Below are positions 11,746 to 30,880 of a stretch of 64,000 nt of DNA, one piece after another; position 1 is the first letter of the stretch, and every line of letters begins with the position of its first letter. A model generated the notes under the pieces. The model worked only from the letters and a program-made list of their open reading frames with translations. It had not been told where the DNA came from and did no database searches. Origin of the DNA: an uncultured archaeon (lineage in GTDB: Archaea; Thermoplasmatota; Thermoplasmata; Thermoplasmatales; Thermoplasmataceae); the NCBI GenBank assembly GCA_000965745.1, contig CP009479.1:640001-704000 (forward strand), read 5' to 3'. Made by a program: the position numbers and the translations under genes.

Positions 11746-12390
11746 ATGGCGAGCATGGACTTCAAAAAGAAGGAGCTTCACACAGCACTGGACCCATCCA
11801 GAACTGCACTTCTCATAGTAGACATGCAGAATGATTTTGTAAAGGATGAGGGTTACCTCGGGCAGAGGAAACATGGGATTGATGTTGTTCAGGAGACAAT
11901 CCCTGTCATAAAGAGGCTGCTGGAACATTTCAGGAACAACGGCCTTATGGTGGTTTATACAGAGACCGTTCACATGAGGTACACAAATTCCCTGAACTGG
12001 GTCAGCAGGTCTGCTGAAAAATCACTTGACCCAATGATATGCAAGAGTGGAACCTGGGGTGCTGAAACCATACCGGAGCTCAAGCCCCTTGAGAACGAGC
12101 CTGTCATACAGAAACACAGGTACGATGCATTCATGGACACTGATCTCCACGTTGTTCTCAGGTCAAACAACATCTCAAACCTGGTAATTGTCGGTACGCA
12201 GACAAACCTGTGCGTTGAGAGCACTGCGAGGCACGCATACATGATGGACTACATGACTATCATGGTGAGTGACGGGGTCTCAACACCGGAAACAGAATAT
12301 CAGGCACCGTTGCTGAAGAATTTTTCGGAAAATTTCGGTTATGTTATGTCTGCTGAAGAAGTGCTTCAGGAACTGAAAAAGCAAAATTAA
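11746..12390 (+). CDS. Isochorismatase-family cysteine hydrolase (RutB-like amidase)
   Basis: LLIVDMQNDF, KHRYDAF, TNLCVESTAR (D-K-C triad intact). Confidence 0.9.
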   Translation: MASMDFKKKELHTALDPSRTALLIVDMQNDFVKDEGYLGQRKHGIDVVQETIPVIKRLLEHFRNNGLMVVYTETVHMRYTNSLNWVSRSAEKSLDPMICKSGTWGAETIPELKPLENEPVIQKHRYDAFMDTDLHVVLRSNNISNLVIVGTQTNLCVESTARHAYMMDYMTIMVSDGVSTPETEYQAPLLKNFSENFGYVMSAEEVLQELKKQN

Positions 12391-12409: not shown

Positions 12410-14017
12410 TCAGATTTCTCCGAGTATGTCTTTTTTAACCCTCTTCTTGGCGAGTTCCTCACCAATCTTGAAATGTTCCCCATTCAGGACCATTCTTGCG
12501 TATCTGTCATACTCATCTGACCACTTTTCAAGATTGTATCCATGCCAGGGCTGCTTCAGGCTCAATTCTGGAAGATCAAGGCTCTCCCATATCTCTTTGG
12601 CTTTGAGCATGTACTCCTTCTTAGGCAGAGAAGTCGGGGGGTAATCGGTCTTCCTCGTCGCGTCTATCAGAATTGCTGACGCTTCCCTGTATCCGCTGTT
12701 AGCATCGCTCTGTCCCTTTACAAACACAGACGGGTCCAGGTGGGCAGTCTTACCCTTAATCAGCTGCATGTCCCTGTGGGGCTGCATTCTGAAACTAAGA
12801 GCCCAGTTGACTGAGTCAGGATCGAAAGGATCAATATCGTCATCCACTGCTATGAACACCTTCCCGATGTCTGCTGCATATCCCGATGCACACACCAGTG
12901 CACGCATTGCGTCAGTGGGCGCATCCTTCTTTATCTGAACCACACAGTACTGCCAGCTTCCGCTGGATTCGTGGAATGCCACCTTTGTAACATTTGGCAG
13001 ACCGCAGTCATTCCTGAGGAACTTAGTGAAGGCGCTTCCATATGCCACCTGCCTCAGCTTGCTGCTCTCACTGGGCGGGAACTGGCTGATAATCGTCTGA
13101 AATATGGGCTTATCCTTCCTGTGGGTAACTGCTGTTATCTCCATTACAGGGCACCACTGGCTCTCAACATCAGCAGCTACGTAACCGGTATATTCACCAA
13201 ATGGAGTCTGGGGCTCGAAGTCCTCAACAGAAACCTTCCCCTCAATGATATATTCAGCGTTTGCGGGCACATATAGGTCAACGGTCTTGCATTTGACAAC
13301 ATCAATCGGCTCTCCTGCGAGACCACCTGAAACAGCGAACTCATCAAGCCCGTACGGGACCTTGGAAGCTGCCGTGTACTGCACATATGGGGGACCGCCT
13401 ATCACTATTGCCGCATCCAGGGTCTTGGAACCATTAGAGGCAGCTTTCCTTAGATGCATGAAACCATGGCTTCCCCTGTGGACTTCCCAGAGTATCTTCC
13501 TCGGGCCGAAAATCTGCCCGGAGTATGTTCCTGCATTCTGAATCCCCGTCTCAACGTCCTTCGTCACGAACGCCGTAGTTGTCCTGACCTGGCAGCTGTA
13601 TCCCGGTATCTCCACAGGAAGCGGTATATCGCTCAGGCCCTTGGCATCAAGGTCCTTTCCGGTAACTACAACTTCCTGGACTTTTGCATCTGTGACAACT
13701 CTTGGCTCAATCGGGCTCTCAATAGCTTCTGTAAACCTGTCGGAGACCTTGTCCGGCTCGCATTCCATACCAGCTGCATACACATCAATAGAGCTGGAAA
13801 GGACGCCGGTGGTCACGGCACCATCATAGTGCCTTCCCTTGGAATCATATACGTTTGTGAAGAGAAACCCTTTCCTCTGCTTTTCAGGCAGGCCTTTGAA
13901 CTGAAGCCTTACCAGGGGCATGAGTTCAGTTTCAAGTTGAATCTCCTTGTCAATTTCAGTAAGGAGGTTTCTTTTCTTGAGTTCTGAGAGATATTCTCTC
14001 AAATCGTGATATACCAT
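12410..14017 (-). CDS. UbiD-family protein 1 (long type, non-canonical active-site motifs)
   Basis: DLREYL N-terminus, VPANAEYIIEG, PFGEYTGY, VDDDIDPFD, IDAT; long C-terminal extension shared with 17199..18800. Confidence 0.9.
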   Translation of the reverse strand: MVYHDLREYLSELKKRNLLTEIDKEIQLETELMPLVRLQFKGLPEKQRKGFLFTNVYDSKGRHYDGAVTTGVLSSSIDVYAAGMECEPDKVSDRFTEAIESPIEPRVVTDAKVQEVVVTGKDLDAKGLSDIPLPVEIPGYSCQVRTTTAFVTKDVETGIQNAGTYSGQIFGPRKILWEVHRGSHGFMHLRKAASNGSKTLDAAIVIGGPPYVQYTAASKVPYGLDEFAVSGGLAGEPIDVVKCKTVDLYVPANAEYIIEGKVSVEDFEPQTPFGEYTGYVAADVESQWCPVMEITAVTHRKDKPIFQTIISQFPPSESSKLRQVAYGSAFTKFLRNDCGLPNVTKVAFHESSGSWQYCVVQIKKDAPTDAMRALVCASGYAADIGKVFIAVDDDIDPFDPDSVNWALSFRMQPHRDMQLIKGKTAHLDPSVFVKGQSDANSGYREASAILIDATRKTDYPPTSLPKKEYMLKAKEIWESLDLPELSLKQPWHGYNLEKWSDEYDRYARMVLNGEHFKIGEELAKKRVKKDILGEI

Positions 14018-14219
14018 GGCCCGGGAACACAGGTTCGCTAAAAAAAATTTCTAATAGTGGAAGAAGCATTTTCCGCTTTACGTAAATTTCCTGGCATATG
14101 GGGGTCCCATGATTTAACAAACGAAGATTTTCTCTATCCAATTTCAAGCGATTCGAGATTAATCCCTTTAAGACCCTCATTATTAATTCTATAATTCCAA
14201 TCCCAATTCCAGCTAATCC

Positions 14220-14563
14220 GCATGTGTGTATCATGAATGGACCCATCGCTGCAATTTCCTACATGCAATCTAGGAATGCGATCTGACTGTTTATCCCATG
14301 GAGGTCCAACTGTCCGTCTCTCCTTGATAGTGCCTGGAAGCTTGGTATTTCCTTAAAGCCGATAGGGGGAAGTTATTCCTCAAGTCCGGTTAGGAATATC
14401 CCTGTAAACCTGTATGAGATGCCGAATAACTGGAGCAGTAAAAGAATCTTCAGTATCTGGCGATCAGACTACTTCCTCTTCCTCACATCATGGCAAACTG
14501 TATTGTCGATAATTCACACATTCAATTATGTAAATAATGATCGACATTTACCTGGCTCTTCAT
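14220..14563 (-). pseudogene. Degenerate N-terminal fragment of a DDE (IS4/IS5-like) transposase
   Basis: Manual translation: MKSQVNVDHYLHN, frameshift, then IIDNTVCHDVRKRK*SDRQILKILLLLQLFGISYR...KEIPSFQALSRR...EIAAMGPFMIHTC with three in-frame stops. The PSFxxLSRR helix resembles DDE transposase N-termini (recalled, not searched). Confidence 0.5.
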
Positions 14564-14650
14564 GAAACCTGAGACCCCATATTGGTACAAATTAAACATC
14601 AGCCAGCCTCCTACGCATTATTTTATAAGTCGAAAATTCATTATAGCCGT

Positions 14651-15334
14651 GTGCACCAGCAGTGGGACGACATTGTAAGCGAAAAAGAGAGAGAGATTAT
14701 ACGGAAAGGCGGCTACGGAAACAGAAAAGACCTGGGCCGTAAGCCTGCACTGATAGTCATAGACGCCCAGTATAACTTTTTTGGAGACAGGAGCCCGACA
14801 CTTGAACAGATGGAAAAGTACCCCACAGGCGTGGGTTCAAAAGCATGGGAATCTCTGGATAAGTCGGTATCTCTGATAAAGGCAGCCAGAATAGCAAAGA
14901 TACCTGTAATATACACCAGATATGTGGCACAGAAATCAGGCAGGTCTCATGAGAGCAAGATGAAGAGAGACCATGCTAAATTTCAACCTGAATCGAAAGG
15001 CTCACAGATCGTGAAGGAAATGGCTCCCATGGGAGACGAAGTGGTCATCGACAAGCAATATGCAAGCGCCTTTTTTGGGACATCACTTATAAATCATCTG
15101 GTAAGCGGAGGGGCAGATACGCTGCTGTTCATTGGTGGAACTACCAGCGGATGTGTCCGTACAAGTGCCATTGACGCATCAAACTATGGCTTCAACTCAG
15201 TGATTGTGGAGGACTGCGTCTTCGACAGGCTTGAAGTTTCACACAAGGTTGCTCTTCTTGATGTGTGGATGAAATACGGAACACTTGTAACACATGAACA
15301 GGCCCTGGATTACTTCAATACGTTTCTCAGGTGA
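14651..15334 (+). CDS. Isochorismatase-family amidase (maleamate amidohydrolase NicF / N-carbamoylsarcosine amidase-like)
   Basis: GYGNRKDLGRKPALIVID, KQYASAFFGT, TTSGCVRTSA. Start moved to GTG 14651; the ORF-track extension runs through promoter-like DNA. Confidence 0.85.
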   Translation: MHQQWDDIVSEKEREIIRKGGYGNRKDLGRKPALIVIDAQYNFFGDRSPTLEQMEKYPTGVGSKAWESLDKSVSLIKAARIAKIPVIYTRYVAQKSGRSHESKMKRDHAKFQPESKGSQIVKEMAPMGDEVVIDKQYASAFFGTSLINHLVSGGADTLLFIGGTTSGCVRTSAIDASNYGFNSVIVEDCVFDRLEVSHKVALLDVWMKYGTLVTHEQALDYFNTFLR

Positions 15335-15370
15335 TAGTTTATTACCAGACATTCCCGTACATATTCAGGT

Positions 15371-15541
15371 GTGGGTTTGGGGAAGTTGGAGTTAATAGCA
15401 GAGCAGAAGCACTTTGGCTCCCCTTTCGTTGTAGCATACGACGAAGAGGGTGAGAGATTTCCGCATGTGGCAAGCATACTCGTCCCAAGGAAAAAATTCG
15501 AAGGCGTCGAAGTTCCCAAAAAAAATAAGGGTGGTAATTGA
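15371..15541 (+). CDS. Possible 56-aa small protein
   Basis: GTG start; MGLGKLELIAEQKHFGSPFVVAYDEEGERFPHVASILVPRKKFEGVEVPKKNKGGN*; below the ORF-track cutoff. Confidence 0.3.
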   Translation: MGLGKLELIAEQKHFGSPFVVAYDEEGERFPHVASILVPRKKFEGVEVPKKNKGGN

Positions 15542-15579
15542 GTGGGAATAAAAAAACCAGTGTAAATATCATGTTTTGA

Positions 15580-17037
15580 TTAAGATTTCTTGAAAAGGTC
15601 AGGCCACTTGTCGTGCACTTTCCGGTCTGTGTCAGGATCTGCCTTCACAACGTCCGGGAATGTCTTCTTCATTATCTTCTCGAAGGGCTTTACGGCCATG
15701 ACTATTGCCCTCGATGCGGTATACTCAAGCAGGTCCTTTCCTTCTTCGTGCTTTGCAATAGGATCAAGTGGAGTTCCCATGGTGTTCCTGACGATGTCAA
15801 TTCCAGACGCAGGATCATTTCTGCTGCACATTGCCCATACAACCTCGTTCAGGTTGGATGGGTCTATGTCATCATCCACAACTACTGTGTATCGCCCTGC
15901 AACATTTCCAGGCCTGCTCTGGGATGCTATGTGCCCCGCCATTACCGCGTGCCCGCCAAACATCTGCTTAACAGAAACAGCTGTGAACGCTCTGGAATAC
16001 CCTTCTTCATGGCACCATACTCCTTTGACGCCAGCCACTCCGGAACCTTCGAGGGCATTCCAGATCAGGGAGGCCCTGATTGGGCATCTATAGTAGGAAT
16101 AATCATAGGGGGGCTTGCCTGCACATGTGCCCATAAGTATGGGCCTGTTTCTGTAGTAGACCGCTTCAATCTTGATCACTGGATTGGACATTTTTCCACC
16201 GGCATAGTACCCCATGAATTCGCCAAGCGGCCCTTCGTCGGTCCTCTCTCCCGTGATGTAACCTTCAACTGCAATCTCACTGTCAGCAGGGATCGGAAGG
16301 CCGGTCACAGGACCTTTGAAGGTATGAACAGGCTTTTCCCTGACAGCCCCAAGGAAGTTGTACTCTGACATACCCTCAGGAACTTCATTGCTGGAAAACA
16401 GGTTGAGGCCAGGATTGTGGCCAAATGAAAGTGCAATGGGTGCGGGTTTGCCGGAATCTAGGTTTTTCTCTACATGTGATCTTCCATGCCTTGAGGCCTC
16501 CATTAGAATGGCCAGCCTCTTTGAGTCCTTCACCATAACCCTGTAGGTTCCCACATTGACCCATCCTGACTCAGGGTCCCTTGTTATTACGGCATCGGCT
16601 GTGCCGATATACCTGCCGCCGTCATTATGGAACCACTTTGGCACAGGAAACTTGAAGAAGTCAATCCGGTCTCCCTTGTCGACATTTTCCATTGTGGGTG
16701 GGTTATCAACCATTACAGGAGCGTATTTCTCATATCCTTTCTCCACGTTTCTCAGTTTTTCCCTTATGGCAGTTGTAAGCTCCAGGTTGTTCAGGTTACT
16801 GTCAAGGTCCAGTGCAGTCGAAACCCTTCTGGAGTCCAGGAGAGCCCCGGTGAGAACCCTGAAGCCCTCAGGATACCCCGGTATCTTGTCAAACAGCAGG
16901 GTGTATTTGTTCCTCTTTGCGTTTGCATCGGTGATGGCACCAATTTCCAAATCCCAGCTGGCACCTTCCACTTTCCTGAGCAACCCCAATTTCTCTATTC
17001 TCTCAATAAATTCCCTTAGGTCATAACTTGAACTCAA
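15580..17037 (-). CDS. UbiD-family prFMN-dependent (de)carboxylase 2 (canonical motifs)
   Basis: DGGRYIGT, NVGTYR, EGPLGEFMGYY, VVDDDIDP. Confidence 0.92.
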   Translation of the reverse strand: MSSSYDLREFIERIEKLGLLRKVEGASWDLEIGAITDANAKRNKYTLLFDKIPGYPEGFRVLTGALLDSRRVSTALDLDSNLNNLELTTAIREKLRNVEKGYEKYAPVMVDNPPTMENVDKGDRIDFFKFPVPKWFHNDGGRYIGTADAVITRDPESGWVNVGTYRVMVKDSKRLAILMEASRHGRSHVEKNLDSGKPAPIALSFGHNPGLNLFSSNEVPEGMSEYNFLGAVREKPVHTFKGPVTGLPIPADSEIAVEGYITGERTDEGPLGEFMGYYAGGKMSNPVIKIEAVYYRNRPILMGTCAGKPPYDYSYYRCPIRASLIWNALEGSGVAGVKGVWCHEEGYSRAFTAVSVKQMFGGHAVMAGHIASQSRPGNVAGRYTVVVDDDIDPSNLNEVVWAMCSRNDPASGIDIVRNTMGTPLDPIAKHEEGKDLLEYTASRAIVMAVKPFEKIMKKTFPDVVKADPDTDRKVHDKWPDLFKKS

Positions 17038-17198
17038 CTCGCCACACCTTCAGCGATTATGGTATTTCTTTTTAAAACGGTTTCGTCCTTTTGAGGTTCT
17101 CAATAACACCGGGAACGGCTCATATGCATAATCTCTTTAATGCTATACGTGGCACGCAGAAAACCAAAGGATTTATACATGCAATTTCATAAAGTGCT

Positions 17199-18800
17199 AT
17201 GGCAGAGTATTACAGGGATTTGAGTGACTATCTGGCCGCATTGGAGAAGGCAGATAAGCTGTACAGAATCGACCGCCCTGTTGAAAAAGAGACTGAGCTT
17301 ACGCCTCTTGTCAGGCTTCAGTACAGGGGTTTACCAGACGAACAGAGAAAAGGATTTCTTTTCAACAACGTGAAGGATGCAAAGGGAAGAAACTATGATA
17401 TTAAAGTGGCAACAGGAATATATGCATCATCAATGGAAATTTATGCTCTCGGCCTGAAGGCTGAGCCAACCAAGGAATCCATTCAGGAAAAATGGGTAAA
17501 TGCGCAACTTCATCCCGTTGAACCCGAAATGGTTGACCATGCGCCAGTCCAGGACAATGTTTTTGAGGGAGACCAGCTCCTTGAGGACGGGAAGGGCCTG
17601 GAAGCATTGCCTATTCCAATAGAGGTCCCTGGGTTCAGTGGCCAGATAAGGACCAGCACGCAGGTCATCACAAGAGACCCCGAGACCGGAATAAGGAACA
17701 TGGGCAACTACTCTGCTCACGTTTTTGGCAAAGACAAGATGCTGTGGGAAATAAACCGGGGAAACCAGGGTTTTATCCACTACAACAAGTGGAAGAAGCT
17801 TGGCAAGCCTATGCCTGCTGCAATCGTGGTTGGCGGAGTACCCTCTTACTTCTACACTGCATCTGCCAAGATTCCATACGGGGTTGACGAGCTTTCCATT
17901 GCCGGAGGCTTTTCAGGTGAGCCGGTCAAGCTTGTTAAGGCAAAGACCGTTGACATGGAAGTGCCTGCAGATGCAGACATAGTCGTTGAAGGCCTCATTT
18001 CAACTGAGAAGATGGAGCCCGGAAACGCATTTGGCGAATACACAGGGTACATGGCTACAGACGTCTGGCTGAGGCCGGTTTTCAATGTTACAGCCGTCAC
18101 AATGAGGAAAAAGCCAACTTTTGTGCACATAATGAGCCAGTTCCCGCCGAGCGAGAGCAGCAAGGTGAGGCTTGTCTCTTCGGACAACGTATACCTGAAG
18201 TTCCTCAGGCACGATGCAAAGGTGCCCGGTGTTCTTGACGTGGCATGGCACGAGATGAGCCAGGCGCAGTGGTGTGTTGTCAAGATCAAGAAGGTCAACA
18301 AGTCCCATCCCTGGCAGATACTGAACCTGCTTTCAGGATATGATACCAGGTGGGGGAAGTTCTTCATCGTGGTGGATGAGGATATAGATCCGAGATCACT
18401 TGATTCTGTCATATGGGCAATGAGCTGGAGAGTGCAGCCAGCCAGGGACATGAGAATAATCCAGGGAAAGGTTCCGGGCCTCGATCCTTCGGCTTACAGC
18501 CCCGGAGCATCCCACGAGGAGAAGGAATTTCCCGGAGGCGTGGGAAGCTCAGCAGTCCTTATTGATGCCACGATAAAGTATCCGTACCCTCCAACCTCAC
18601 TTCCGAGGAAGGAATATATGGAAAAAGCCCTGGAAATATGGAAGGAGCTCAAGCTGCCGCAACTCAATCTGGTGGCTCCGTGGTACGGCTATGAACTTGG
18701 CTACTGGCCTGACGAGTTCAGGCAGGATGCGGAGGACCTGGTAAAGGGTGAGCACTACAAGATCGGAGAGAGGCTTTCCAAAAAAGAACTGAAAGATTAA
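17199..18800 (+). CDS. UbiD-family protein 3 (long type, non-canonical active-site motifs)
   Basis: Close paralog of 12410..14017 (SQFPPSESSK, PPTSLPxKEYM, PWxGY). Has NMGNYS and GNAFGEY where GTYR and EGPFGE are expected. Confidence 0.9.
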   Translation: MAEYYRDLSDYLAALEKADKLYRIDRPVEKETELTPLVRLQYRGLPDEQRKGFLFNNVKDAKGRNYDIKVATGIYASSMEIYALGLKAEPTKESIQEKWVNAQLHPVEPEMVDHAPVQDNVFEGDQLLEDGKGLEALPIPIEVPGFSGQIRTSTQVITRDPETGIRNMGNYSAHVFGKDKMLWEINRGNQGFIHYNKWKKLGKPMPAAIVVGGVPSYFYTASAKIPYGVDELSIAGGFSGEPVKLVKAKTVDMEVPADADIVVEGLISTEKMEPGNAFGEYTGYMATDVWLRPVFNVTAVTMRKKPTFVHIMSQFPPSESSKVRLVSSDNVYLKFLRHDAKVPGVLDVAWHEMSQAQWCVVKIKKVNKSHPWQILNLLSGYDTRWGKFFIVVDEDIDPRSLDSVIWAMSWRVQPARDMRIIQGKVPGLDPSAYSPGASHEEKEFPGGVGSSAVLIDATIKYPYPPTSLPRKEYMEKALEIWKELKLPQLNLVAPWYGYELGYWPDEFRQDAEDLVKGEHYKIGERLSKKELKD

Positions 18801-19092: not shown

Positions 19093-19108
19093 CTGGTGCA
19101 TCAAAATG
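18995..19108 (+). ncRNA. Putative TnpB omegaRNA/reRNA-like scaffold plus flanking guide (boundaries approximate)
   Basis: GTACCCTCGGGCCTGAGGGAATTCATGCCTGCGGAG...GAAGCAGGAAGCCCC...GGGGAGGAGGTCAC resembles the right end of tnpB elements; CCTGC/GCAGG complementarity. Expression is not shown. Confidence 0.5.
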
Positions 19109-19621
19109 TCCCAAAATCTCGGCAGCAAACTTCCGGACAAGACGTTCAATTCCCTGAAATTTTCAAACGAAACAAGAACTAACAGCGCGATTTTCCTGTT
19201 GACTAAAGACGGTGAATCATTCCCCCACGTAGCGCTACTGTCTCCATACCAGGTGGTGGCAGTAAACAGGGTGAAGCTACTCGTGGCAGTCCATTCCGCT
19301 TCCAGAAGCTGCGCGTTTCTGGCATCAGACGGAAAGGGGACTCTCATACTCCAGCTTGAACCCGCAGTGCAGTATGTCAAGTGCAGATTTTCGGAATCGG
19401 ATGACAAGGGATACTCATCAGGGGAATACGGTGAAAAACTGTTCAATGCAACCCCACTGGAAATCCTGGAGGATTACTCTGACAAAGCGCCATTTGTTTC
19501 AGAACTCAGATTTGATGAAACAAACACCTACGGCCCATACTCCGAAGGTTTCGGCAGGCTCAAGAAGATAGCGGAAGAAGACACCGGAAGGGAATGGCCT
19601 AGTCCTCTCCCCACTCCTTAA
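19106..19621 (+). CDS. Pyridoxamine 5'-phosphate oxidase-like FMN-binding split-barrel protein
   Basis: FLLTKDGESFPHVALLS...SRSCAFLASDGKGTL pattern. True start ATG 19106 follows a GGTG RBS; the ORF-track N-terminus is mobile-element DNA. Confidence 0.6.
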   Translation: MSQNLGSKLPDKTFNSLKFSNETRTNSAIFLLTKDGESFPHVALLSPYQVVAVNRVKLLVAVHSASRSCAFLASDGKGTLILQLEPAVQYVKCRFSESDDKGYSSGEYGEKLFNATPLEILEDYSDKAPFVSELRFDETNTYGPYSEGFGRLKKIAEEDTGREWPSPLPTP

Positions 19622-20165
19622 GTAGATCCGTCTTGACGCCAATCATGTTCAGGACCCTTCCCACAGTAAGGTCCACCATATTCTCTATGTCACTTATCTT
19701 GAAGTAAAGTGGAGGCAGCGGTGGCATTATTGTTCCCCCGGCCTCAGTAATCTGTACCATATTCCTGAGATGTATCAGGTTAAGGGGAGTCTCCCTCGCA
19801 AGAAGGATCAGGGGCCTCCTCTCCTTCAGTGTTACCATGGCAGCTCTTGCAACAAGGTTCTGCTCAAAGCCGGTCGCAATGGCAGAAAGCGTTTTCATGG
19901 AACACGGGGCAACGATCATGCCCTCGGTCTGGAATGACCCGCTAGCTATGGACGCTGTGAACTCATATTCGCCGTATACGTGATCCGCAAGCTCCTTGAG
20001 TTTGTCGGCTTCAAGGCCCGTTTCTATTTTTAGAGTCTTCTCAGCCCCATTGCTGACCACAAGGTGGGTTTCGGCATCAGTCTTGTTTCTGCAGGCCAGT
20101 AGCAGCCTGTATCCATAAATCGCACCCGTCGAGCCGGTAACGGCCACAACTATCTTCTTTGTCAT
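19599..20165 (-). CDS. ubiX: Flavin prenyltransferase UbiX
   Basis: VTGSTGAIYG, ASIASGSF, APCSMKTLS, LKERRPL, RETPL. Confidence 0.95.
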   Translation of the reverse strand: MTKKIVVAVTGSTGAIYGYRLLLACRNKTDAETHLVVSNGAEKTLKIETGLEADKLKELADHVYGEYEFTASIASGSFQTEGMIVAPCSMKTLSAIATGFEQNLVARAAMVTLKERRPLILLARETPLNLIHLRNMVQITEAGGTIMPPLPPLYFKISDIENMVDLTVGRVLNMIGVKTDLLKEWGED

Positions 20166-23922: not shown

Positions 23923-24402
23923 TCACTTCTTCTGGGCAAAGTACTTTCTCTGAGCGTCCTGTACTGCGTCAACGATCTGCTGATACCCGGTGCACATACA
24001 GTAATTCCCATGCAGCTTTTCCCTGATCTCCTCTCTTGTCATCTCCTCGTTGTTCCTGATGAGATAGTTTGTCATCATAAGGAAACCCGATGTGCAGTAC
24101 CCGCACTGAAGGGCGAACTTCTCCCTGAAGGACTCCTGCTCAATGCTCAGCTCTCCGTTCGGCCCTTCAAGCCCTTCTACCGTCTTTAGGTTTGCACCCT
24201 GAGCCTGGACAGCCAGTATCTGGCAGGACTTCACGGGTTTCCCATCCCACTGGATAGTGCATGCTCCGCAGTGGCCAGTGTCACAACCTATGTGCGTCCC
24301 CTTGAGTTTCAATACATCCCGTATGAAATGCACGAGCAGCATCCTCGGCTCAGTCTCACCCGAATATTCCTTTCCATTTATTGTAAGATTCACAGTAACC
24401 AT
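23923..24402 (-). CDS. Molybdenum hydroxylase small [2Fe-2S] subunit (CoxS/CutS-like)
   Basis: GCDTGHCGACT, QCGYCTSG, NYCMCTGY. Confidence 0.93.
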   Translation of the reverse strand: MVTVNLTINGKEYSGETEPRMLLVHFIRDVLKLKGTHIGCDTGHCGACTIQWDGKPVKSCQILAVQAQGANLKTVEGLEGPNGELSIEQESFREKFALQCGYCTSGFLMMTNYLIRNNEEMTREEIREKLHGNYCMCTGYQQIVDAVQDAQRKYFAQKK

Positions 24403-24414
24403 TGTTATTCCTCC

Positions 24415-25266
24415 TTACTCAATTAACTCCTTTATCACTCTTGCTAGCATCATTTTCAGCGAGTATTTCCTGTACTCCTCTCCTCCATGGATATCCGAAA
24501 TCGGGGTGAGAGCGTCAACAGTCTCTGATATGGAAGTTTGGAGGTCCACTGAATCTTTCTTCTTCCCCTTAAGGGCAGACTCAAGGCTCTTTAACCTCTC
24601 AGGCCCATCCGTAAGTGCTCCAGCTGCAATTCTAAGTTCTTCTATGCTTCCGTCCGAAGCAGTTCTGGCAATAGCTGCCACCGAAACTACTGCAAAGTCA
24701 GCCTTTCTCCGCGCATACTTCTCCACATGGTATTGATCTGTGCTCTTCGGGACTATTATCTCCACAGCTATCTCATCTTCCCTTGCATCAGTCTCGTAGG
24801 GCCCTTTGATGAAATCTTCTATCCTCACGGTTCTCCTTCCTTCTTTGGAAAGAAGGACAATGCTTGCTTCAAGAACGAACATAGTGGGTGGATAGTCTGC
24901 AGAGGGGTCTGCTTCACATATGCTTCCACCAATTGTCCCCCTGTTTCTTATCTGTATATCTCCTATGTTTTCAGCCGTGGAAGCAAGAATTGGCGCATTT
25001 TCCCTGATAAGCCCGTTCTCTATTACTTCAAAATGGGTCACCATTGCGCCGATTCTGAGATTCCCGCCTTCATCAAGCTTCACCTGCTTCAGTTCTGGAA
25101 TAGCTCCAAGATCTATCAGGCAGGCAGGCTCATAAAAACGGAGCTTGAGCATAGGCATCAGGCTCTGCCCTCCAGCTATGACTTTTGGCTCTTCAACGGT
25201 CTTCATCAATTCTAGGGCCTCGTCGAGAGTTTTTGGCCTGTAGTACTCGAATTCAGTGGGATACAT
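24415..25266 (-). CDS. Molybdenum hydroxylase FAD subunit (CoxM/CutM-like)
   Basis: AGGQSLMPML, IRNRGTIGGS, ADPSAD. Confidence 0.93.
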   Translation of the reverse strand: MYPTEFEYYRPKTLDEALELMKTVEEPKVIAGGQSLMPMLKLRFYEPACLIDLGAIPELKQVKLDEGGNLRIGAMVTHFEVIENGLIRENAPILASTAENIGDIQIRNRGTIGGSICEADPSADYPPTMFVLEASIVLLSKEGRRTVRIEDFIKGPYETDAREDEIAVEIIVPKSTDQYHVEKYARRKADFAVVSVAAIARTASDGSIEELRIAAGALTDGPERLKSLESALKGKKKDSVDLQTSISETVDALTPISDIHGGEEYRKYSLKMMLARVIKELIE

Positions 25267-27743
25267 CAGTTTGCCCCTCCTGTGAGTTTCTTGTATTCAT
25301 CAGTATCCTTGACCATCTCCCAAAGCTTTTCAGGCTTTATTGGAAGCTCGCTTATCTTAACGCCAAATGGCTTAAGTGCATCTTCAACTGCTCCTGCTAT
25401 GGCCCCCAGGGATGTTATTGCCCCTCCCTCGCCTACGGCTTTAGTTCCGAATACGGTGTTTGGTGCCGGGGACTCCATTTCATCAAGCTTTATCTCAGGA
25501 GACTCCATTGCAGTTGGCTTCATGTATTCTGCGAATGTAAGCGACAGGTTATTGCCCTGTTCGTCGAAGAGAAACTCTTCATAGAGTGCACCACCTATTC
25601 CGCTTACGGTTGAACCTATGGCCATGCCGTCCACGATTCCGGGGTTTATGACTTTGCCTGCGTCATGAACTATGGAGTAATCGAGAATCTTCACGTTCCA
25701 GTTCTCGGGTGAAACTTCTACAAGGCATATGTGGGTCGAATTTGAGTGTGTCAGCTGAACGTTAAAATCATCTCTGTGGAATGGCTTGGCAGTCTTGTTC
25801 ACGTAAGATGCCGTTATCTTAAGTCCAGGGTCCTGATCCTTGGGGAATGAGAGCAATCTGCCGTAGGAGATCTTTGCGAGTTCCTTGACACCAACCAGCT
25901 TCTCTGAATCCGATTTCCTGAAAACATGTCCTTCTGCTATATCCAGGTCTTCCACATTCTCCTTCTTTAGCGATGCTGCAATCGCAAGGATCTTCTCCTT
26001 CAGCAGTGTGGCCGCCTTCATCACTGCTCCAAGGTAAACATCATTGAACGCGTTTGAGTAGGTCCCTGCGTATGTCAGATGCCCATGCACGGAGTCATAC
26101 CAGCCATCTACAATGATGTCCTCAGGCTCAAGGCCAAACACATCTGATACTACCTGCGCAATGGTGGTTACATGTCCTGTTCCAATCTCAGGGCCGTTCA
26201 TGTTAACCTTCACGGTTCCGTCGGCTACCATTTCAACTGTTGCCATCTGGCCAGCACCGTTGTAGTCAGGGTCTCCCTCCTTTGAAAGGAAGTAATATCC
26301 AAGGTTGGAAGTACCGGGTTCTATGCCGCAGGCGATTCCAATTCCCACGTATCTGCCTTCTTTCCTGAGCTTTTCCTGCAGCTTCAGCTTTTCATGGTAT
26401 TCTGAAAAGTTGAGCGCTCTTCTGAAATTCTCGGGATAGTTTCCGCTCTCGTATACTTCACCTGAAAATGTGGTATATGGCATTTTCTCGGCAGGAACAA
26501 AATTCTTCTCCCTGATAATTGTCCTGTCGATGCCAAGGGCGTCCGCACTCTTGTCCATCATTCTTTCAAGGGCGAAGGACATGAATGGCTTCCCGACTCC
26601 TCTGTCCTGAACTATAGGTGGATCATTGGTGGCGACAGAATGGTACGAGTAGTCGAGGTTTCTTATTTCGTAAACGCCACACATGTTTGCAAACTTGATC
26701 AGCGAATAAAGAGCAGCAACATATGGCCAGTTTCCATCTGCCTGCCAGTCTGTAAGGCGTGCTCCGAGTATCTTTCCGTCTTTTCTGAGGGCAAATTCAG
26801 CATCCATAAACCCTCTCGGCCTGTGGAATGCGTACAGGCTTTCTGTCCTGGTCTGAACCCACTTTACGGGTTTGCCCGTCAGCTTGCTAAGGAGCGAGAC
26901 CAGTGCAACGTACTGCCAGATAGCGAGCTTGTTGCCAAATCCTCCTCCCACCTGCGGCACTATCAGCCTGATCTTCGACTGCGGAATCTTGATCGTGCTT
27001 TCTATGGACCCTACCGTTCTTCCAGGCTGCTGATCGCTCGCATAGGCGAGAAGCTCGTCTCTAGTCTGGTCATAAAACGCGCTGGTCACAAAGGTCTCAA
27101 GCGGTGTTGATGCGTACCTGTGGATCCGTATCCTGTCCTTAACTATCTTATCTGCCTCCTTGAAAGCCTTTTCCGTATCCCCGAACTTGAAGTGATCTTC
27201 TATGAGCTGGTTGGTCCCTATCTCAGGATAGATGAGCTCAGATTCTTTTTTCATGGCATCTTCTATTGTAGCTACCACAGGAAGCGGGTCATATTCAACA
27301 TCAATGAGGTCGATCGCGTCCGCTGCAATGTACTTCGTCTTGGCTACAACGGCAACAACAGGCTCTCCCATGTACCTTACTTTGTCCACTGCGAGTATGT
27401 AGTGTGATGTTGGTGATTTCGTTGCAGCTCTTGACTTCATAGGGTTTGTGATCTTTTTCACTTCTTCCCCTGTCAGAACATATATCACGCCGGGTAGCTC
27501 AAGAGCCTTGGAAATGTCGATGTTTTTTATCTTTGCATGCGCAAACGGGCTGAAATGGAAAGCAGCGTAATGCTGGTCGGCGAACTCAATATCGTCAGCA
27601 TACCCTCCTTTTCCTCTAATAATTTTCAGGTCCTCAATGCGCGGAACAGCTTTTCCTACACTGCCTGACTTTTTGCCATCTTCTGAATAAACGAGAGTCT
27701 GGGCAGACGAATTTGAACCTTGCATATTGGCTGAAGGTAACAC
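25266..27743 (-). CDS. Molybdenum hydroxylase large molybdopterin subunit (xanthine oxidase family; not aerobic CODH)
   Basis: VGGGFGNK, GTGH, GTKAVGEGG (catalytic Glu); active-site loop QDRGVG rather than AYxCSFR. Confidence 0.9.
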   Translation of the reverse strand: MLPSANMQGSNSSAQTLVYSEDGKKSGSVGKAVPRIEDLKIIRGKGGYADDIEFADQHYAAFHFSPFAHAKIKNIDISKALELPGVIYVLTGEEVKKITNPMKSRAATKSPTSHYILAVDKVRYMGEPVVAVVAKTKYIAADAIDLIDVEYDPLPVVATIEDAMKKESELIYPEIGTNQLIEDHFKFGDTEKAFKEADKIVKDRIRIHRYASTPLETFVTSAFYDQTRDELLAYASDQQPGRTVGSIESTIKIPQSKIRLIVPQVGGGFGNKLAIWQYVALVSLLSKLTGKPVKWVQTRTESLYAFHRPRGFMDAEFALRKDGKILGARLTDWQADGNWPYVAALYSLIKFANMCGVYEIRNLDYSYHSVATNDPPIVQDRGVGKPFMSFALERMMDKSADALGIDRTIIREKNFVPAEKMPYTTFSGEVYESGNYPENFRRALNFSEYHEKLKLQEKLRKEGRYVGIGIACGIEPGTSNLGYYFLSKEGDPDYNGAGQMATVEMVADGTVKVNMNGPEIGTGHVTTIAQVVSDVFGLEPEDIIVDGWYDSVHGHLTYAGTYSNAFNDVYLGAVMKAATLLKEKILAIAASLKKENVEDLDIAEGHVFRKSDSEKLVGVKELAKISYGRLLSFPKDQDPGLKITASYVNKTAKPFHRDDFNVQLTHSNSTHICLVEVSPENWNVKILDYSIVHDAGKVINPGIVDGMAIGSTVSGIGGALYEEFLFDEQGNNLSLTFAEYMKPTAMESPEIKLDEMESPAPNTVFGTKAVGEGGAITSLGAIAGAVEDALKPFGVKISELPIKPEKLWEMVKDTDEYKKLTGGAN

Positions 27744-29416: not shown

Positions 29417-30880
29417 ATGGTGCAATGGGCAGATTTAAGGGAATGGATAGAACTCGCTGACAAACTTGGTGAACTTAAGGTTCTGAAGGGAGTGGACCCA
29501 AAACTGGAATTGTCTGCAATAGCTCAGATCAACGCAAGGAACCAGGGGCCAGCTCTCCTTTTCGACGATGTTAAAGGATATGAAAACACAGGATTCAGGG
29601 TGCTTAGTAACTCAGTATCAAACCTCAATCTTTTCAATCTTACTTTCGGAGGCAAAACCGGCCTCTCTCTAAAAGAGACTATAGAGGGCCTGATGGGGAA
29701 ACCGAATGAGTGGCAGCTCAATAGCAAGGATTATCAGGTCAAGTATGTAGAAAATGGTCCGGTAATGGAGAATGTTGAGGAAGGAGAGGGTGTTGATCTC
29801 ACTAAATTTCCTACCCCAATTTGGCATGACAAGGACGGGGGGCCATTTATTGGCACTGGTGTCGCTGTGATAACCAGGGACCCTGAGACAGGGGTAATAA
29901 ATTCCGGGTCATACAGGGCGCAGTTGCATGAAAAAAACATTGTCGGCATAAACGCAGAAAGAGGAAAACACGGAGCTTTCCACAGGGACAAATACTACAG
30001 CAGGGATGAGCCAATGCCCGTTGTCATGGTTTTCGGCCCGGATCCTCTGATGTACATTCTGGCAGGAAGTGAAATTCCAACAGGGATATCGGAGCTCGAG
30101 TATCAGGGAGCCGTCCAGGGCAAGAGTATTACAGCGGTGAAAGGAAAGTATACTAGGCTACCCATACCATCAAATGCTGAAATTGTGATAGAAGGTTTCA
30201 CTTACCCCGGAAAAACGAAACTGGAAGGGCCGCACGGTGAATGGACTGGATATTACGCCAGTGATGCCAAAGAGAAACCGTACGTCGAGGTAAAGGCTGT
30301 TTATTACAGAAACAACCCTATAATCCTTGGGGCAGCAATGTCAAAGGGAAGCTACAATGATCACGCTTTCTGGAGAAGCATCATGAGGTCTGCGCTGGTG
30401 TATGATGAGATGGTGAAAAACGGAATCCAGGGGATAAAGGGGGTGTACTCGCCTCCTTTTGGAGTTGGCAGGCAATTTATCACCGTATCAATCAAGCAGT
30501 CCTATCCGGGCCACGCTACAGAAGCAGGATATCTCGCCTCACAGACAAGGAGTGCCGCCTATATGGGCAAATGGGTCGTGGTTGTTGACGATGACGTGAA
30601 TCCGTACGATATGGACGATGTCCTATGGGCCATGTGCAGCAGGGCTGACCCATCCGAAACAGGCATAATCAGAAAGGCTTGGGCGAGCGGCGTTGATCCT
30701 CTGAGGCCAAAGGATGTCCCCGCATCCAAACACACAAATTCCAGGGGAATAATATTCGCGGTTGTTCCCTATGAAAGGATGGACAACTTCTCTGAAACCT
30801 GCATTGCATCTGATGACACAAGGAGGGAAACCTTCGAAAAGTGGTCAGAAGAACTGAATGGCAGATGGGACAAATATTGA
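29417..30880 (+). CDS. UbiD-family prFMN-dependent (de)carboxylase 4 (canonical motifs)
   Basis: DGGPFIGT, NSGSYR, EGPHGEWTGYY, VVDDDVNP. Confidence 0.92.
   Translation: MVQWADLREWIELADKLGELKVLKGVDPKLELSAIAQINARNQGPALLFDDVKGYENTGFRVLSNSVSNLNLFNLTFGGKTGLSLKETIEGLMGKPNEWQLNSKDYQVKYVENGPVMENVEEGEGVDLTKFPTPIWHDKDGGPFIGTGVAVITRDPETGVINSGSYRAQLHEKNIVGINAERGKHGAFHRDKYYSRDEPMPVVMVFGPDPLMYILAGSEIPTGISELEYQGAVQGKSITAVKGKYTRLPIPSNAEIVIEGFTYPGKTKLEGPHGEWTGYYASDAKEKPYVEVKAVYYRNNPIILGAAMSKGSYNDHAFWRSIMRSALVYDEMVKNGIQGIKGVYSPPFGVGRQFITVSIKQSYPGHATEAGYLASQTRSAAYMGKWVVVVDDDVNPYDMDDVLWAMCSRADPSETGIIRKAWASGVDPLRPKDVPASKHTNSRGIIFAVVPYERMDNFSETCIASDDTRRETFEKWSEELNGRWDKY

Follow-up and report, generated by a model that had tools for sequence, protein, structure and literature searches.

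UbiD genes of the window and their active-site residues

In this study, we have analyzed a 64,000-nucleotide stretch of DNA from an uncultured archaeon (contig CP009479.1, positions 640,001 to 704,000; here called the window) that carries four genes of the UbiD family, whose characterized members use prenylated flavin mononucleotide (prFMN). Two of these genes, UbiD1 and UbiD3, encode proteins with an altered active site. The host genome is complete (2.23 Mb) and is most closely related to those of Thermoplasmatales archaea. Each of the four genes is an intact open reading frame (ORF) with the Pfam domains UbiD_N, UbiD, and UbiD_C (Table 1). UbiD1 and UbiD3 matched the Pfam UbiD model with E values of 5e-50 and 2e-50, respectively, in addition to UbiD_C, and easily passed the gathering score. 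Against TIGR00148 (cutoff, 244.85), UbiD1 (238.5) and UbiD3 (231.0) scored below the cutoff, whereas UbiD2 (257.2) and UbiD4 (264.6) scored above it.

The UbiD active site contains a Glu-Arg-Glu network that is described as conserved throughout the family (PMC3650080, PMC8988006, PMC5818171); the UbiD literature regards it as both invariant and essential to the mechanism. The Arg of Fdc1, R173, holds the carboxylate or CO2, and without it the oxidative maturation of prFMN does not proceed cleanly: the R173A and R173K proteins show perturbed maturation with accumulation of the radical and have almost no activity. The first Glu, E277, tunes both R173 and E282, and the E277Q protein is nearly inactive; E282, the second Glu, donates the proton (PMC5818171). 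Full-text searches of the literature found no description of a UbiD clade without the arginine.

A preliminary description of this DNA had reported that UbiD1 (GTYS and QTPFGE) and UbiD3 (GNYS and GNAFGE) lack the catalytic Arg and the first Glu of this network. HMMER alignment to the solved structure of HmfF (6h6x) confirmed the report in register: Ser166 of UbiD1 falls at the position of the catalytic Arg and Gln270 at that of the first Glu. The same register was obtained when 209 near-full-length homologues, collected from two large protein searches, were aligned with MAFFT and when 154 UbiD ORFs from 86 fetched loci were aligned with hmmalign. In both proteins the E(D)-R-E network is incomplete: the Arg is replaced by Ser, the first Glu is replaced by Gln in UbiD1 and by Gly in UbiD3, and the second Glu is retained.

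The two residues covary. Approximately 110 of the 209 homologues have both the Arg and the first Glu and approximately 95 have neither, leaving three sequences with the Arg but not the Glu and one with the Glu but not the Arg; joint presence or absence thus holds in all but 4 of the 209. Judged from these counts, the paired absence is not a chance occurrence. When 91 variant sequences were compared column by column with 113 canonical ones (50 long-form and 63 short), only four columns defined the variant clade: D to S, Y to R (99%), R to S, and E to variable. The motif D-x-x-x-Y...N-x-G-x-Y-R...E-x-x-F-G-E has become S-x-Q-x-R...N-x-G-x-Y-S...x-x-x-F-G-E. A recount over 93 variant and 113 canonical sequences found the new Arg (Arg145 of UbiD1, in QVRT; QIRT in UbiD3) in every variant (93/93) and in no canonical sequence (0/113). 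It replaces the Tyr of D-x-x-x-Y, 21 residues upstream of the old Arg, on the adjacent strand of a hairpin. The remaining positions N161, Y165, H188, E226, F273, G274, E275, R300, K386, and W405 are equally conserved in the two groups, and the metal and prFMN-phosphate ligands of the variants (N161, 93/93; H188, 89/93; E226, 93/93) are like those of canonical proteins. The hmmalign set gave the same all-or-none division, into the signatures x-R-N-S-x-x and x-[YF]-N-R-E-[ED].

The register of the Tyr-to-Arg change was set by variants with the canonical loop length (PGFDxxxRTT versus PGFDxxPYTT). Pairwise HMMER alignment to HmfF had placed Arg145 one residue away from the Tyr, an assignment that was overruled by comparisons, anchored on the right and on the left, with variants that do not have the one-residue deletion as well as with canonical long forms. 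The compensating arginine that had been looked for in QVRT and QIRT is therefore borne out at the level of sequence, and in the AlphaFold model it lies on the neighboring strand of the hairpin. The canonical position is indeed empty of arginine; however, the preliminary description had itself named another Arg taking over this place as the finding that would speak against a loss, and the data favor an arginine that was moved rather than lost. We found no role for the Tyr or Asp of D-x-x-x-Y in papers on PA0254, AnInD, and Fdc1.

The AlphaFold2 model of UbiD1 was of high confidence (pLDDT, 94.6; pTM, 0.90), and its top 45 Foldseek matches were all UbiD enzymes, the best including HmfF, Escherichia coli UbiD, AroY, and Fdc. 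Residues 144 to 153 and 160 to 171 form consecutive strands joined by a six-residue turn. If, as is usual, the last residue of one strand pairs with the first of the next, Arg145 would stand opposite residue 168; it would then share a face with Ser166 and lie two residues farther from the metal site.

Two other features of the window had been reported together with the altered site. UbiD1 and UbiD3 do share the C-terminal extension PPTSLP.KEYM...PW.GY..W; however, the extension is general to the long-form subfamily and is not tied to the change of Arg and Glu, since canonical long forms carry it too. The 2:2 ratio of variant to canonical genes holds for the window only; genome-wide there are eight UbiD paralogues, of which six are canonical and only UbiD1 and UbiD3 are variant. 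Each of the four paralogues outside the window (examples of outside positions are C1:98683-99264, 925248-925832, 1081288-1081848, and 1845822-1846424) is canonical, and two are long proteins with a different C terminus.

Other departures from the canonical signature were observed. A bacterial variant subclade, from metagenome-assembled genomes (loci L037, L063, L064, and L080), has S-R-N-S-E-D, with Glu at the first-Glu position and Asp at the second, and its genes frequently occur as pairs of variants adjoining a molybdenum hydroxylase. A 502-amino-acid (aa) protein (L035, 6740-8245) has E-T-N-T-H-D at the six positions and represents another noncanonical UbiD type.

Origin and conservation of the variant clade

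Maximum-likelihood analysis grouped all but one of the 93 variants in a single clade (92 sequences; SH-like support, 0.998), which is sister to a canonical long-form clade within a long-form UbiD subfamily of approximately 530 aa. This clade leaves out the outlier P0134; when P0134 is included, the most recent common ancestor takes in canonical sequences. The basal branch of the variant clade retains the Asp of D-x-x-x-Y. UbiD1 and UbiD3, which are 52% identical, belong to sister subclades with the signatures S-R-S-Q-E (22 sequences) and S-R-S-G-E (41 sequences), and position 270 is nearly fixed within each (Q in 22/22 and G in 38/41, respectively). The preliminary description had spoken of a paired loss in two diverged paralogues. 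The variants form one clade with UbiD1 and UbiD3 as sister subclades, and the tree thus gives a single ancient swap that preceded the duplication and not two losses in parallel; UbiD1 and UbiD3 share the altered site by inheritance. P0134 (E-R-N-N-D-E, also given as ERNDE) lies outside the main clade and therefore may represent a second, independent origin.

The variant clade spans archaea and bacteria, with members in Thermoplasmatota, Sulfolobales, Aigarchaeota, Nitrososphaerota, Desulfobacterota, Chloroflexota, and others, and includes strict anaerobes (Syntrophales and Desulfobacterales). Mean column identity across it is 61%. Comparison of UbiD1, UbiD2, and UbiD3 with orthologues from four related genomes gave numbers of nonsynonymous substitutions per site (dN) of 0.10 to 0.18 for UbiD1 and UbiD3, below the 0.15 to 0.28 of canonical UbiD2. 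Synonymous divergence (dS) was saturated, and the dN/dS ratio, omega, was 0.03 to 0.06 where computable. The earlier proposal that the altered sites are selected rather than decayed is upheld by these values, by the occurrence of at least 93 such sequences in archaeal and bacterial phyla, and by the invariance of the cofactor and metal positions and of the second Glu. UbiD1 and UbiD3 are not decaying genes.

Gene neighborhood and proposed function of the variant proteins

Genes for cofactor synthesis and for the turnover of small molecules surround the four UbiD genes (Table 1).

Table 1. Features of the window discussed in the text
Feature	Position	Strand	Remarks
Isochorismatase-family hydrolase	11746-12390	+	Convergent with UbiD1
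UbiD1, long-form, variant, SRSQE subclade	12410-14017	-	535 aa; NAGTYS at 161-166, QTPFGEY at 270-276; signature S141-R145-N161-S166-Q270-E275
Second isochorismatase-family hydrolase	14582-15334	+	Between UbiD1 and UbiD2; not at this position in relatives L008-L010
UbiD2, canonical short, PhdA-like	15580-17037	-	485 aa; NVGTYR, EGPLGEF; D-Y-N-R-E-E
UbiD3, long-form, variant, SRSGE subclade	17199-18800	+	533 aa; NMGNYS, GNAFGEY; signature S-R-N-S-G-E
PhdC-like protein, candidate prFMN maturase	19106-19621	+	171 aa; between UbiD3 and UbiX; found by profile search
UbiX flavin prenyltransferase	19599-20165	-	NF004685, 238.5 bits (cutoff, 188); 0.8 kb from UbiD3
Molybdenum hydroxylase, three subunits (2Fe-2S, flavin adenine dinucleotide, molybdenum cofactor)	23923-27743	-	Recurrent neighbor of variant UbiD genes
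UbiD4, canonical short	29417-30880	+	487 aa; NSGSYR, EGPHGEW; D-F-N-R-E-E

UbiD2 is divergent from UbiD3, and the oppositely oriented isochorismatase-like gene within positions 14018 to 15579 separates UbiD1 from UbiD2. The PhdC-like ORF is missed by Pfam alone; a five-sequence profile matched PhdC (9SRG) with an E value of 2.5e-9, the next match having an E value of 0.25. The order UbiD, PhdC-like gene, UbiX also occurs in an Aigarchaeota genome (L004). At the position of PhdC Glu47, the window protein has Gln and the Aigarchaeota homologue has Glu. A specific tie between PhdC and the change of the Arg was considered and is weakened, since PhdC homologues are absent from all bacterial variant loci and the known partner of PhdC, PhdA, is canonical.

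Of 21 variant loci, 10 have a gene for a molybdenum hydroxylase large subunit within 10 kb, and NicX, thiamine pyrophosphate (TPP) enzymes, and transporters recur near variant loci of other phyla. Further neighbors in the window are an Amidohydro_2 protein, a cyclase-type hydrolase, two alpha/beta hydrolases, a DUF2848 protein, an HpaB-type oxygenase with a flavin reductase, and three major facilitator superfamily transporters. This island fits the catabolism of N-heteroaromatic or hydroxylated heteroaromatic acids. A UbiD1-type orthologue from Sulfodiicoccus acidiphilus (P0014) bears the UniRef name "Anhydromevalonate phosphate decarboxylase," which looks like an over-annotation, since the contexts of the variant clade, here and in relatives, are catabolic. 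In a search of a plasmid collection, cultured bacteria yielded canonical long forms only, and the long-form UbiD proteins that adjoin molybdenum enzymes in cultured rhizobia and Paraburkholderia are canonical. One example is a plasmid of Neorhizobium petrolearium (L091, 3290-18109), where a canonical long-form UbiD gene lies between two molybdenum subunits of the xanthine dehydrogenase family, accompanied by genes for UbiX, a TPP enzyme, and a tripartite tricarboxylate transporter; the host is cultured and could be used for study of the long-form subfamily.

Based on these data, we propose that UbiD1 and UbiD3 are working enzymes that depend on prFMN and most likely catalyze reversible decarboxylation, and that they belong to an ancient, uncharacterized clade with a rewired active-site charge network; we put the probability of this reading at roughly 0.55. 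In the swap, Ser replaced the canonical Arg (R173 in Fdc1), and the first Glu (E277) was freed to vary, being Gln in the lineage of UbiD1 and Gly in that of UbiD3; the near-universal Asp of D-x-x-x-Y became Ser and the Tyr an invariant Arg. The metal ligands, the Glu that donates the proton (equivalent to E282), and the remaining residues that are invariant in the family were kept. The positive charge close to the flavin would come from the new Arg at its shifted position, which would alter how the carboxylate or CO2 is held and hence which substrates fit. If the Arg has moved, the tuning Glu should have no role and the proton donor must stay, and the pattern seen matches this expectation. UbiD1 and UbiD3 would then be separate catalysts within the catabolic island; UbiX, encoded next to them, would make their cofactor, and the PhdC homologue, also encoded there, might mature it.

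Several points weigh against this proposal. Full compensation by the new Arg is an assumption, because the R173 and E277 mutants of Fdc1 are nearly dead, and the reach of Arg145 to the old Arg site depends on a hairpin register that was read from the DSSP string of the model. The substrate class is inferred from the neighbors alone. PhdC homologues are found only at archaeal variant loci (4/21), none being present at the bacterial ones, and the homologue in the window may serve the PhdA-like UbiD2 instead. Finally, another UbiD gene accompanies variant genes more often than it does canonical long forms, which would also fit an association of different UbiD subunits.

Such an association, in which UbiD1, UbiD3, or both form hetero-oligomers with UbiD2 and the variant site is structural, is regulatory, or serves a second substrate, is in our view unlikely, although the arrangement of the genes offers it several arguments. 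A trio of long variant, short canonical, and long variant genes recurs in Thermoplasmatales (L008 to L010), Nitrososphaerota (L005), and Desulfobacterales (L003 and L077), and in the related Thermoplasmatales (L008 to L010), the orthologues of UbiD2 and UbiD1 are neighbors in the same orientation (L008, 2641-5779; L010, 1321-4639). Another UbiD gene lies within 10 kb in 9 of 11 variant loci versus 13 of 34 canonical long-form loci (Fisher's exact test, P = 0.017, with kinship among loci ignored), and the companions of variants are nearly always of the short DGGxY type. However, canonical long forms have DGGxY companions too (22 in 65 loci), so that this pairing is not specific to variants, and there are variant genes with no canonical UbiD gene within 10 kb (L001 and L080) or paired only with another variant (L037, L063, and L064). 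UbiD1, UbiD2, and UbiD3 of the window form separate transcription units. A noncatalytic subunit would not be expected to keep the new Arg, the acid-base Glu, and the metal ligands invariant; in the known case of two UbiD-type subunits, PpcA and PpcB, both have the canonical network; and the clustering is explained just as well if the proteins act one after another in one pathway.

It is also conceivable, but in our judgment quite unlikely, that the variant clade uses prFMN for other chemistry, such as net carboxylation of a hydroxylated heterocycle, a reaction on a noncarboxylate substrate, or a reaction with a different redox or isomer state of prFMN. In favor of this view, the canonical position no longer holds the residue equivalent to R173, with its roles in carboxylate or CO2 binding and oxidative maturation (PMC5818171); subclades differ in their residue at the first-Glu position; variant genes are tightly associated with those for molybdenum hydroxylases; and in the strictly anaerobic members of the clade O2-dependent maturation would be unavailable. 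Set against this, an invariant Arg is still close by and the proton-donor Glu is retained, decarboxylation is the reaction of all of the nearest characterized relatives (HmfF, PhdA, and the canonical sister clade), and there is no positive evidence for another reaction. That UbiD1 and UbiD3 are inactive relics, pseudoenzymes on the way to being lost, is very improbable. The near inactivity of the equivalent single mutants of Fdc1, R173A and E277Q (PMC5818171), and the TIGR00148 scores just under the cutoff are what such relics might show; however, the relic reading is contradicted by the selection data, namely, an omega of no more than 0.06 and dN below that of the canonical neighbor UbiD2, as well as by the intact frames, by conservation of the clade over two domains of life and by the invariant catalytic and cofactor positions.

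A further extension of the proposal of a rewired but active site, which we regard as speculative and rather doubtful, is that the relocated Arg marks a second, mechanistically distinct UbiD active-site architecture. Such a site would hold the carboxylate or CO2 elsewhere relative to prFMN, perhaps with a trans-acting maturase or a route to the cofactor that does not use O2, and would allow (de)carboxylation of hydroxylated N-heteroaromatics made by the molybdenum hydroxylases encoded nearby or nondecarboxylative prFMN chemistry.

The variant clade is an old, widespread, and unstudied branch of the UbiD family, and its sequences look like those of working enzymes rather than broken copies. It offers a natural experiment on which parts of the Glu-Arg-Glu network are really required, supplies concrete targets for enzymology, some of them in cultured organisms or complete genomes, and widens the sequence space for biocatalytic heteroaromatic (de)carboxylation. 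It is also a warning to annotators, since motif-based calls of an inactive UbiD would be wrong for this clade.

Comparison with known UbiD systems

The preliminary description had likened the mixture of variant and canonical genes to phenylphosphate carboxylase, in which PpcA and PpcB, encoded by side-by-side UbiD-type genes, work as one enzyme. The analogy fails for a degenerate site: the annotated PpcA and PpcB of an Azoarcus sp. KH32C plasmid (L092, 5998-9441) both keep D-Y-N-R-E-E. UbiD1 and UbiD3 scored 119.8 and 135.4 against TIGR02724 (cutoff, 468.95) and 99.9 and 114.2 against TIGR02723 (cutoff, 564.6), far from the similarity expected of Ppc subunits, and none of the neighbors scanned was annotated as a Ppc delta or gamma subunit.

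The closest solved relative of UbiD1 is HmfF of Pelotomaculum thermopropionicum (6H6V/6H6X), a prFMN- and UbiX-dependent 2,5-furandicarboxylate decarboxylase with a heteroaromatic acid as its substrate. HmfF is the best match of UbiD1 both by sequence (E value, 3e-45) and by fold (Foldseek E value, 7e-41; TM to target, 0.83 to 0.92). Unlike UbiD1, to which it is 26 to 28% identical, HmfF is only approximately 445 aa long, does not have the C-terminal extension, and has the canonical D...Y...R...E...E. UbiD1 and UbiD3 share with Fdc1 of Aspergillus niger the fold and the site for the cofactor; their sequences align with Fdc1 in the F-G-E loop and in the spacing of N-x-G-x-Y-[R], and they retain the second Glu. 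The variants differ from Fdc1 in having Ser for R173, Gln or Gly for E277, and the new Arg for the Tyr of the upstream D-x-x-x-Y.

At the level of the locus, the window is reminiscent of the phd system of Mycolicibacterium fortuitum, which comprises a phenazine-1-carboxylate decarboxylase (PhdA), a prenyltransferase (PhdB), and a prFMN maturase (PhdC). The counterparts in the window are UbiD2, whose best solved relative is PhdA (7PDA; E value, 9e-90), UbiX, and the PhdC homologue, all clustered with the variant genes. In contrast, PhdA has the canonical network, and the phd operon contains no counterpart of the variant long-form genes. In Cupriavidus sp. LA-1, a xanthine-8-carboxylate decarboxylase (XCDC), which its authors describe as distant from known UbiD proteins, acts with a molybdenum-containing lumazine dehydrogenase in a lumazine pathway (PMC12391406). 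Likened by description only, that system and the window both combine UbiD and UbiX with a molybdenum enzyme and amidohydrolase-type enzymes, which in Cupriavidus break down an N-heterocycle (PMC12391406).

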